A DNA stretch of 64,000 bases from Escherichia coli (GTDB lineage Bacteria > Pseudomonadota > Gammaproteobacteria > Enterobacterales > Enterobacteriaceae). Below the pieces are notes generated by a model. The model searched no databases. It saw nothing but the letters and a program-made list of their open reading frames with translations, and was not told where the DNA came from. How positions within the stretch are numbered: the first letter of the stretch is position 1; each line of letters starts with the position of its first letter. Location: assembly GCF_003334785.1 (NCBI RefSeq), contig NZ_QOWV01000002.1; one strand, given 5' to 3'. Position numbers and translations under genes: made by a program. Positions 60,910 to 61,806 of this stretch are shown piece after piece.

Positions 60910-61009
60910 TTCCCGTTTTATTCAATGAGGGTTGCCCGGCAACCCTCATTGCTCATTGATTCTTATCTGTGTATCACCGTCATCATTCTCATCTGAGAAC
61001 CAATCGAAA

Positions 61010-61215
61010 TTAACAACAGCCTTCTTCTGTATGCAGCAAGGCAAAAAGTTCTGTAACTCCATTGTTATTAACTGCACTGGTTACTAACACGTTGTGCGCT
61101 CCAGCTTCCCGTAACCAACTTTTCACCAAAGATATTTGTTCCATGCTGGCTAAATCTGCTTTGGTTACTACTCCAATGACCGGGTGATTCATGGCCCGGT
61201 AGGGCGTTTTTACCT
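61010..61215 (-). pseudogene. C-terminal fragment of a P-loop GTPase-like protein (EutP/PduV-like, tentative; resembles K-12 yoeF remnant)
   Basis: Only the C-terminal ~65 residues of ORF 61010..61366 (...HPVIGVVTKADLA...GVTELFALL) look protein-like; the N-terminal part is antisense to the IS66 fragment. Confidence 0.4.
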
Positions 61216-61258
61216 CTAATTCCTGCTTCAGCGCTGAGATTCCTGCTTGTTGCCGGAA

Positions 61259-61392
61259 AAGCAGGCACCTGCCGTCTGAACGGTATCGATCCGGAAGCGT
61301 ATCTGCGCCATATTCTGAGCATACTGCCGGAATGGCCCTCCAACCGTGTTGACGAACTCCTGCCATGGAACGTAGTTCTCACCAATAAATAA
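61259..61392 (+). mobile_element. 3'-terminal remnant of an IS66-family transposase gene
   Basis: Plus-strand frame reads ...TCRLNGIDPEAYLRHILSILPEWPSNRVDELLPWNVVLTNK*, matching recalled IS66 transposase C-termini; no start codon or upstream transposase body. Confidence 0.55.
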
Positions 61393-61806
61393 GCGTCAAT
61401 ACGGTGCTCCGTTGACGCTTACTTTAATCCGTTTTCTGAGCTTAGATTTTTCTGTTCCTACCCAGACCGTGGATTTGGAATTCATTTTTTGTCAGGTCAA
61501 TGCTAATCGTTAAAACGGCCATAACGCACCTCCACTGGAAGGTTTATCAGTAATATCCTACCGTTGCTTCATGGTCGGGGCGTCCATTCCATTATTATCG
61601 GTTTTCCTTTCTGTTTATAAATGAAAACGCCAGCTGTATTCAGGCTGGCGTCAGGGGAAATGAAGCCTGTTGAGTGAGATTCACCGGTTCTGGTGCAGAA
61701 GCTGCAGATGGCGCAGGGTAAGGACATCTTCTCTTGCCTGCTTAATACAGGACAACAGTGCTGTTTCTGTGGTTAATGGCACTATACCCTGCATCACTGC
61801 ATTGTC

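Follow-up and report, generated by a model that had tools for sequence, protein, structure and literature searches.

The 897 bp between positions 60910 and 61806 of the window, by which we mean the whole 64,000-nucleotide stretch of Escherichia coli DNA that was analysed, are very probably a non-functional scar left by serial insertions and deletions at the junction between a CP4-44-type island and the chromosome. Every base of this interval can be assigned, and it comprises seven broken pieces of genes and insertion sequences (IS), whose family matches are well beyond chance. The locus is already annotated; the new content is its exact anatomy, together with the advice to treat YoeF as a pseudogene mosaic. 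The features of the interval and of the island gene next to it are the following.

60923-60951, both strands: hairpin with a perfect 13-bp stem, between the stop codons of tmaR (60909) and of the pduV relic (61010)
61010-61192, minus strand: 3′ relic of pduV, codons 88-147 and stop codon (Pfam PduV-EutP; nucleotide identity to intact pduV)
61193-61263, minus strand: internal piece of a DUF4942 gene, about codons 37-60, 71 bp (identity to the precursor loci L003 and L004; BLASTP)
61010-61366, minus strand: the 118-aa YoeF ORF, a three-part chimera by the coordinates of its pieces
61264-61392, plus strand: last 42 codons and stop codon of an ISEc23-like IS66 transposase (Pfam; nucleotide identity; K-12 yoeD)
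61393-61422, plus strand: right terminus of the IS66 element including the terminal inverted repeat, 30 bp (position as the right repeat of the intact ISEc23 in L023)
61423-61522, minus strand: first 33 codons of an IS1111-type (IS110-family) transposase, with one frameshift (BLASTP; identity to L003)
61523-61595, minus strand: left end of the IS1111-type element (end-to-end alignment of the L003 relic with intact copies)
61596-61680, minus strand: island spacer between the DUF957 and DUF4942 genes (identity to the spacer of L005)
61681-61797, minus strand: DUF957 pseudogene (alignment with the intact 65-codon gene of L005; BLASTP)
61807-62001, minus strand: yeeW, a truncated DUF5983 gene (annotations in K-12 and in an identical strain; alignment with L005)

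Results

The locus and its counterpart in K-12

Window positions 59350-63700 correspond to the E. coli region from yeeA through tmaR (yeeX) to the edge of CP4-44. Comparison with the K-12 interval, which an earlier sequence-only reading had proposed, bore out the placement of this DNA at the decayed edge of a CP4-44-like island. Positions 60500-62100 are 99.56% identical to K-12 MG1655, with seven substitutions, and the annotated end of CP4-44 in K-12, at 2,078,748, maps to 61193. K-12 yoeD (b4642, a pseudogene of 129 bp) coincides with 61264-61392 and K-12 yoeF (b4538, a CDS of 118 aa) with 61010-61366 on the minus strand. All junctions are identical to those of the K-12 yoeD/yoeF locus, which lies at the right end of this cryptic prophage, and there is no biological difference between the two. 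Furthermore, the 897 bp occur with 100% identity in many other strains.

The K-12 annotation keeps YoeF as a protein and has no entry for the DUF957 pseudogene, the IS1111-type stub or the DUF4942 piece. In a strain identical to the window, PGAP makes three calls: 61010-61192 as an EutP/PduV protein of 60 aa, 61255-61392 as a partial transposase and 61681-61773 as a partial DUF957 gene. We found no discussion of the origin of yoeF or yoeD in the literature searched.

A longer precursor state in other genomes

The states of the locus were counted in 5426 complete E. coli genomes. The K-12-like state with the IS66 scar is the commonest (3164 genomes), and a longer precursor state without the IS66 piece occurs in 601 genomes, including those of strains Ec-U5 (L003), NRZ101721 (L004) and OkiPb01690 (L006). 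In the precursor, tmaR is followed in order by a 121-aa DUF4942′-′pduV ORF, a complete frameshifted transposase gene of the IS110 family and a DUF957 fragment. The match between the window and this arrangement breaks off after 61263 and is regained at 61423; where the long state has 1311 bp (L003 2688-3998), the window has 159 bp of ISEc23.

YoeF is a chimera of three sources

The 118-aa ORF had been read as a chimera of a GTPase fragment and the antisense of a transposase piece, the two abutting. The ORF is indeed a chimera, but it has three parts, and the two pieces do not abut, since the 71-bp DUF4942 piece lies between them. The first 34 codons of YoeF run antisense to the IS66 piece, DUF4942 supplied codons 35-58, and the remainder, codons 59-118, is pduV sequence.

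The middle part is 98% identical to the corresponding DNA of L003 and L004, in which the ORF keeps the DUF4942 N-terminus MSD(I/M)TIS. When the 121-aa ORF of these loci was compared with the intact DUF4942 protein of L005, a paralogous island in which DUF4942 is the last gene, residues 1-54 were matched (BLASTP 1e-16). These first ~54 residues, MSDMTISLPKEVNGHVICST..., match the N-terminus of a 281-aa DUF4942 protein. A Pfam search with the 121-aa precursor ORF gave no match to DUF4942 and only a match to PduV-EutP at residues 60-115. The two genes join in frame at a shared ATGAA, which reads ...GCG ATG AAA in DUF4942 and ...TCA ATG AAT in pduV; because L005, at 87% identity, is a paralogue and not the true ancestor, this microhomology is approximate, as are the small deletions described below in their details. 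These alignments indicate that 61193-61263 represents approximately 24 codons of DUF4942 fused in frame to pduV.

That YoeF is a real gene whose protein is expressed is very unlikely. The reading frame is open in both K-12 and the window, and yoeF is included among the uncharacterised K-12 genes in the 2024 y-ome survey (PMC11551758). In addition, a TraDIS study (PMC10879529) reported that gentamicin depleted insertions in yoeD and yoeF. However, the depletion was seen in only one of three libraries, and the ORF draws 34 of its codons from antisense IS66, 24 from DUF4942 and 60 from pduV. Its start codon and N-terminus are absent from the 601 genomes in the precursor state. Moreover, it contains neither the P-loop nor the switch motifs of a GTPase, its Pfam match being confined to model positions 86-142, and PGAP calls not YoeF but only its 60-codon pduV part. 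The promoter signal does not exceed chance: two promoter-like sites were found, compared with 1.7 expected from shuffled sequences, and one of the two is the native DNA that precedes the start codon of DUF4942. Among the alleles of the pduV relic, pN/pS was 0.3-0.7, with 2-5 replacements in 60 codons, which are too few substitutions to decide. We conclude that YoeF is not a gene but a chimera of three sources.

The IS66 piece is the right end of an ISEc23-like element

The sequence-only reading had placed the 3′ fragment of an IS66-family transposase, without an upstream body, at 61259-61392. Matches to this family and to the EutP/PduV GTPase family were looked for, and both were found. The plus-strand piece matches the Pfam family DDE_Tnp_IS66_C (PF13817) with an i-E of 1.2e-15 over model positions 4-39 of 39, and the NCBIfam model transpos_IS66 weakly (0.038), the piece being short. 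The 3′ limit of the coding fragment was correct, but its start is at 61264 and the terminus of the element runs on to 61422.

Positions 61264-61422 share ~96% nucleotide identity with the 3′ end of intact ISEc23/IS682, and matches to copies of ISEc23 end at 61422 in many unrelated contexts. The right terminal repeat ends with ...GACGCTTAC at 61422, at the same position as in the intact 2532-bp ISEc23 of L023, which is flanked by the 8-bp duplication CTTAAAGG. When tested, this end proved to be an IS66 terminal inverted repeat beginning GTAAGCG, and 61393-61422 can fold into a hairpin (dG -13.8). The TTTAATCC that follows 61422 is presumed to be the surviving copy of an 8-bp target duplication; the left end and the left flank of the element have been deleted, and only this right copy remains. 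No microhomology is found at the 61263/61264 breakpoint.

Intact ISEc23/IS682 carries tnpA-tnpB-tnpC in 2532 bp and generates an 8-bp target duplication. The window shares with it the 159-bp 3′ end including the terminal repeat, that is, 159 of the 2532 bp (6%), and does not have tnpA, tnpB, the catalytic domain or the left end. Because these parts are absent, the 159-bp piece cannot move; it is a fragment of a member of the family and not an element.

An IS1111-type stub and decayed island genes occupy 61423-61806

According to the sequence-only reading, 61393-61806 has no convincing ORF on either strand. The interval does not contain an intact gene, but its DNA is assignable throughout, to the end of the IS66 element, a stub of an IS1111-type element, an island spacer and the DUF957 pseudogene.

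The stub (61423-61522) encodes MAVLTISIDLTKNEFQIHGL... and was truncated when the IS66 element inserted; a mechanical reading yields a 26-aa ORF at 61442-61522. The stub region is 99.5% identical to L003, which holds the whole degenerate transposase pseudogene of 1029 bp, annotated as an IS110-family RNA-guided transposase. Residues 1-33 are 64% identical to an intact IS110 transposase of Salmonella (P0082; BLASTP 1e-10). The 32-aa stub had no Pfam or NCBIfam match, the piece being too short, and the reconstructed full relic of L003 retrieved intact 344-aa proteins with PF01548 and PF02371 at 69-77% identity (up to 6.6e-161).

Over its full length, the L003 relic (2796-4174) can be aligned with intact copies of 1380 bp from Providencia (74%) and Salmonella (80%), and the limits of the element were defined from six independent Providencia insertions. 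The Providencia element, of 1380 bp, has a 76-bp left end, the subterminal repeats ATGGTCGCTCC and GGAGCGACCAT, and, 3′ of tnp, 269 bp of non-coding DNA. In the window, the left end (61523-61595) holds a GGAGGTG Shine-Dalgarno sequence, the left subterminal inverted repeat ATGGACGCCCC at about 61577-61587 and a TAATAAT half-promoter, and the boundary between IS and target is at 61593-61595. The right repeat and the 269-bp 3′ region are present in L003 and in the intact relatives and have been deleted from the window. The empty site in L005 reads CCGATA/AT/GTCAGA, and the element was inserted at the start codon of DUF4942. There is one copy of the relic per E. coli genome; apparent second genomic contexts were rejected, as they proved to be IS100 insertions into the relic.

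The architecture of the relic is that of IS1111 as described by Siddiquee et al. (PMC11187229). It shares with the IS1111-type members of the IS110 family, such as ISEc11, which have RNA-guided DEDD transposases, a short left end, subterminal repeats, an IDL(A/T)KN N-terminus, a long non-coding region on the 3′ side and insertion at a specific site that leaves no long duplication. However, the window keeps only the left 173 bp of the element, and even the full E. coli copy is a frameshifted relic.

The adjacent spacer (61596-61680) is 87% identical to that of L005. Within this spacer, positions 61626-61652 can form a terminator-like hairpin (dG -16.1, z -5.9); UUUUCAUUU and the ribosome-binding region of DUF4942 come after it. 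The DUF957 pseudogene has lost 93 bp (31 codons) in frame between GCACTG repeats, and its native ATG is also lost. The C-terminal 30 residues of this relic are 73% identical to an intact member (BLASTP 2e-14); a Pfam match was not obtained, the piece being too short. In yeeW, 64 codons remain, compared with 163 in the intact paralogue; they represent the first third of a DUF5983 gene, and the alignment with L005 shows a deletion of ~300 bp that spans the 3′ two thirds. It is the last island gene that is still open before the scar. An intact right end of the CP4 type (cbeA-cbtA-DUF5983-DUF957-DUF4942), for example that of the tRNA-Ile island of HCP5S3_I2, has the same gene order and ~87% nucleotide identity in the retained parts, whereas here only yeeW is left of DUF5983, DUF957 has an internal deletion, and of DUF4942 there remain 24 codons fused to pduV.

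The sequence-only reading had also suggested that a junction of this kind may hide a small RNA, which in 61393-61806 could be a guide RNA of the IS110 family (a bridge or seek RNA) or another transcript. IS110/IS1111 elements encode a guide RNA in a long non-coding region (PMC11187229), PGAP labels the whole relic "RNA-guided transposase", and the interval contains two stable hairpins. Nevertheless, we consider such an RNA extremely improbable. In the IS1111 architecture the 269-bp non-coding region is located 3′ of tnp, within the segment deleted from the window, and because of this deletion a bridge or seek RNA in the retained IS end was rejected. The retained left end folds no better than shuffled sequences (z -1.2). 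One of the two hairpins is accounted for by the IS66 terminal repeat, the other by the terminator-like element that follows DUF957 and is conserved in L005. In addition, a permissive Rfam search of window positions 59000-64000 gave no match at E<=1, and the same search of the precursor locus L003 gave only a chance miRNA match (E 3.2). Neither Rfam nor folding thus supports a hidden RNA, and the interval is better described as the decayed IS ends and island genes set out above.

The GTPase fragment is the 3′ end of chromosomal pduV

A C-terminal fragment resembling an EutP/PduV-type GTPase had been reported at 61010-61215. The resemblance is real and the lower limit was correct, but the upper limit was 23 bp too far, as the homology begins at 61192. 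The minus-strand piece 61010-61192 matches Pfam PduV-EutP (PF10662; 2.6e-13, model positions 86-142 of 143) and NCBIfam TIGR02528 (EutP; 3.2e-11), the latter with a score of 43.7, below the curated cut-off of 138; both profile matches span only the last ~57 of the 143 model positions. An E. coli contig (L008) carries an intact pduV of 147 aa, and the relic shares 97% nucleotide identity with the last 183 bp of that gene. This homology starts exactly at 61192 and continues through the stop codon, a 100-bp spacer and the hairpin into tmaR. At the protein level, the relic matches the intact 147-aa protein with a BLASTP E-value of 5e-40 and 93% identity over the last 61 residues. Full-length 147-aa relatives (P0043 and P0047) carry the P-loop and DTPG, which in P0043 read MQRMMLIGPSQCGKTS...DTPGEY, and over their final 60 residues they differ little from the relic. 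The relic lacks the N-terminal 87 residues and so has neither the P-loop GPSQCGKT nor DTPG.

In L008 and in E. albertii (L009), pduN-O-P-Q-S-T-U-V is followed by the convergent genes tmaR, yeeA, sbmC and dacD. In position, the relic agrees with PduV, whose gene closes the E. coli pdu operon: the relic is convergent with tmaR and adjoins the same hairpin. It differs in having no nucleotide-binding motifs, and no bacterial microcompartment (BMC; pdu or eut) genes were found near it in the window. The hairpin at 60923-60951 has a dG of -21.0 and -21.8 kcal/mol on the two strands (z -4.4 and -5.0). It is also present between intact pduV and tmaR in the pdu-positive E. coli L008, and it is predicted from its structure and position to be a bidirectional terminator-like element common to tmaR and pduV.

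An island-free state was found in strain UC4224 (L025), in which cobTSU, a longer pduV fragment and tmaR follow one another without an island. Because this island-free state has a pduV fragment between cobU and tmaR, the relic in the window is chromosomal. As in L025, pduV adjoins tmaR in L008 and L009. In the population, an intact pduT-U-V/pdu operon is present in 645 of the 5426 genomes. A different, longer 3′ fragment of pduV, with its breakpoint at about codon 49 and located next to cobU, occurs in about 187 genomes, and in most genomes the breakpoint of pduV is codon 88, fused to the island.

The sequence-only reading placed the decayed island edge correctly, but its label of a prophage remnant implied that the GTPase fragment belongs to that edge; an origin of the fragment in CP4-44 itself, whether island or prophage, is scarcely tenable. 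In favour of it, yoeF is placed within the CP4-44 cluster in the y-ome tables (PMC11551758) and the fragment adjoins island genes. Against it, the fragment adjoins tmaR in 5421 of the 5426 genomes, including genomes without an island at this site (L004, L025), it matches the 3′ end of an intact pduV whose distance from tmaR is the same, and intact paralogous islands end with DUF4942 and carry no EutP/PduV gene. From the limits of homology, the pdu-positive contexts and the population counts, we conclude that the fragment is a vestige of chromosomal pduV, the remainder of the pdu operon, and not island DNA, and that 61193 is the junction between island and chromosome.

Discussion

A proposed history of the scar

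The identity and the limits of every piece, as well as the pdu-positive and the long precursor states in other genomes, were observed directly. The order of events and the mechanisms of deletion are those that we infer, and they would be the following. In the ancestor, a chromosomal pdu operon would have ended with pduV, convergent with tmaR, a state that survives in E. coli and E. albertii. A deletion would then have joined DUF4942, at about codon 65, in frame to codon 88 of pduV at the ATGAA microhomology, removing the rest of DUF4942, the end of the island and the pdu operon. Either before or after this deletion, an IS1111-type element would have inserted site-specifically at the DUF4942 start codon and subsequently decayed by frameshifts and stop codons.

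An ISEc23-like IS66 element would next have entered the dead transposase gene at codon 33, with TTTAATCC as its target. A one-sided deletion of ~3.7 kb, extending leftwards from inside the IS66 element to codon 36 of DUF4942, may have followed. This deletion would have removed 2373 bp of the IS66 element, leaving 159 bp, together with most of the IS1111-type element, including its 3′ guide-RNA region, and codons 1-36 of DUF4942. Small deletions would have crippled DUF957 and DUF5983 (yeeW). The direct precursor of this step, a whole ISEc23 at TTTAATCC with its right end abutting TTTAATCCGTTTTCTGAGC, was not found in the 5426 genomes when a synthetic chimeric query was used; therefore, the IS66 insertion and the one-sided deletion are reconstructed and not observed.

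Other strains carry further insertions in the same relic. In strain C288, an independent whole ISEc23 is located 113 bp further in, with the duplication GACATTAT, and in other strains IS100 and IS30 have inserted into the relic. The site is thus a landing pad that has been used repeatedly.

Function and significance

On the sequence evidence, the locus is probably without function. As a speculation that we consider most doubtful, a minus-strand transcript could run through the IS1111-type stub, with its 26-codon ORF and strong GGAGGTG, and through the YoeF ORF, ending at the tmaR/pduV hairpin. Such a transcript might yield a chimeric protein with the C-terminal domain of PduV, or an RNA that affects formation of the 3′ end of tmaR. 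If true, it would explain the depletion of yoeD and yoeF insertions under gentamicin in a single TraDIS library. The reading that we favour remains that of a non-functional scar.

The locus is of little biological weight, and it is a textbook case of layered decay: an IS within an IS within an island gene that is fused to a chromosomal gene. For annotation, the result is a matter of clean-up, as the K-12 RefSeq record still presents YoeF as a protein and the y-ome includes it, despite an N-terminus that is antisense to IS66. The scar marks the place where a genomic island replaced the propanediol-utilisation operon, and the pduV relic, together with its alternative breakpoints, provides a population-genomic record of how, and how often, lineages of E. 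coli lost the pdu operon.

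Short genes and gene relics around tmaR

According to the K-12 annotation, in which yoeJ (b4818) lies between yeeA and tmaR, this gene of 16 codons maps by its coordinates to approximately 60464-60514 of the plus strand in the window, immediately ahead of the position where tmaR truly begins. An open reading frame called there by the ORF finder (60514-60909) is 131 aa long, compared with 109 aa for the annotated TmaR.

62001-62371, minus strand: cbtA toxin gene, frameshifted

The open frame of cbtA in the window (62108-62371) ends after 87 codons, compared with 124 codons in K-12, and in strain 203740, which is identical, PGAP labels the gene "frameshifted". 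By contrast with the toxin gene, cbeA, which encodes the antitoxin, is intact in the window. In the DUF957 relic, a pseudogene of the island, a single substitution at 61792 (C, compared with T in K-12) creates a new minus-strand ATG, which heads an open frame of 37/38 codons (61681-61797) that is present in this strain and absent from K-12 and from L003, a precursor-state E. coli locus.

In a TraDIS screen under gentamicin, the top depleted genes included yoeD (log2FC -6.5), yoeF (log2FC -4.1) and yeeS, and the depletion of these genes appeared in one MG1655 library out of three (PMC10879529). The K-12 genes yoeD and yoeF correspond to 61010-61392 of the window; their depletion may represent small-target noise or polarity on tmaR or cbtA.

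The dead IS1111-type element

The decayed element adjoining tmaR has been independently invaded by IS100, IS30 and ISEc23 in different strains. The element and IS hits were located in precursor-state E. coli loci (L003, L004 and L006, the last together with L007) and in strain C288, which carries ISEc23 (L024).

L003, 2796-4174
L006/L007, ~1100-2950
L004, 4163-5314
L024, 1869-4400

Genomes that carry the dead element have only one copy of it, and none of the copies found in E. coli is intact. Intact relatives of 1380 bp were identified in Providencia stuartii (L015-L020) and Salmonella enterica (L010-L014); these relatives share a YYAAAT-like motif in their right flanks and contain a 269-bp 3′ non-coding region, which is presumed to be the seekRNA gene.

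A second endpoint of pdu loss

In E. coli UC4224 (L025, 3165-3799), a longer, 297-bp pduV 3′ fragment lies directly between cobTSU and tmaR, and the CP4-44-type island is absent from the locus. This longer fragment is found in approximately 187 of 5426 complete E. coli genomes. The arrangement is a second endpoint of pdu loss, independent of the first, and therefore at least four states of the locus are polymorphic in E. coli.
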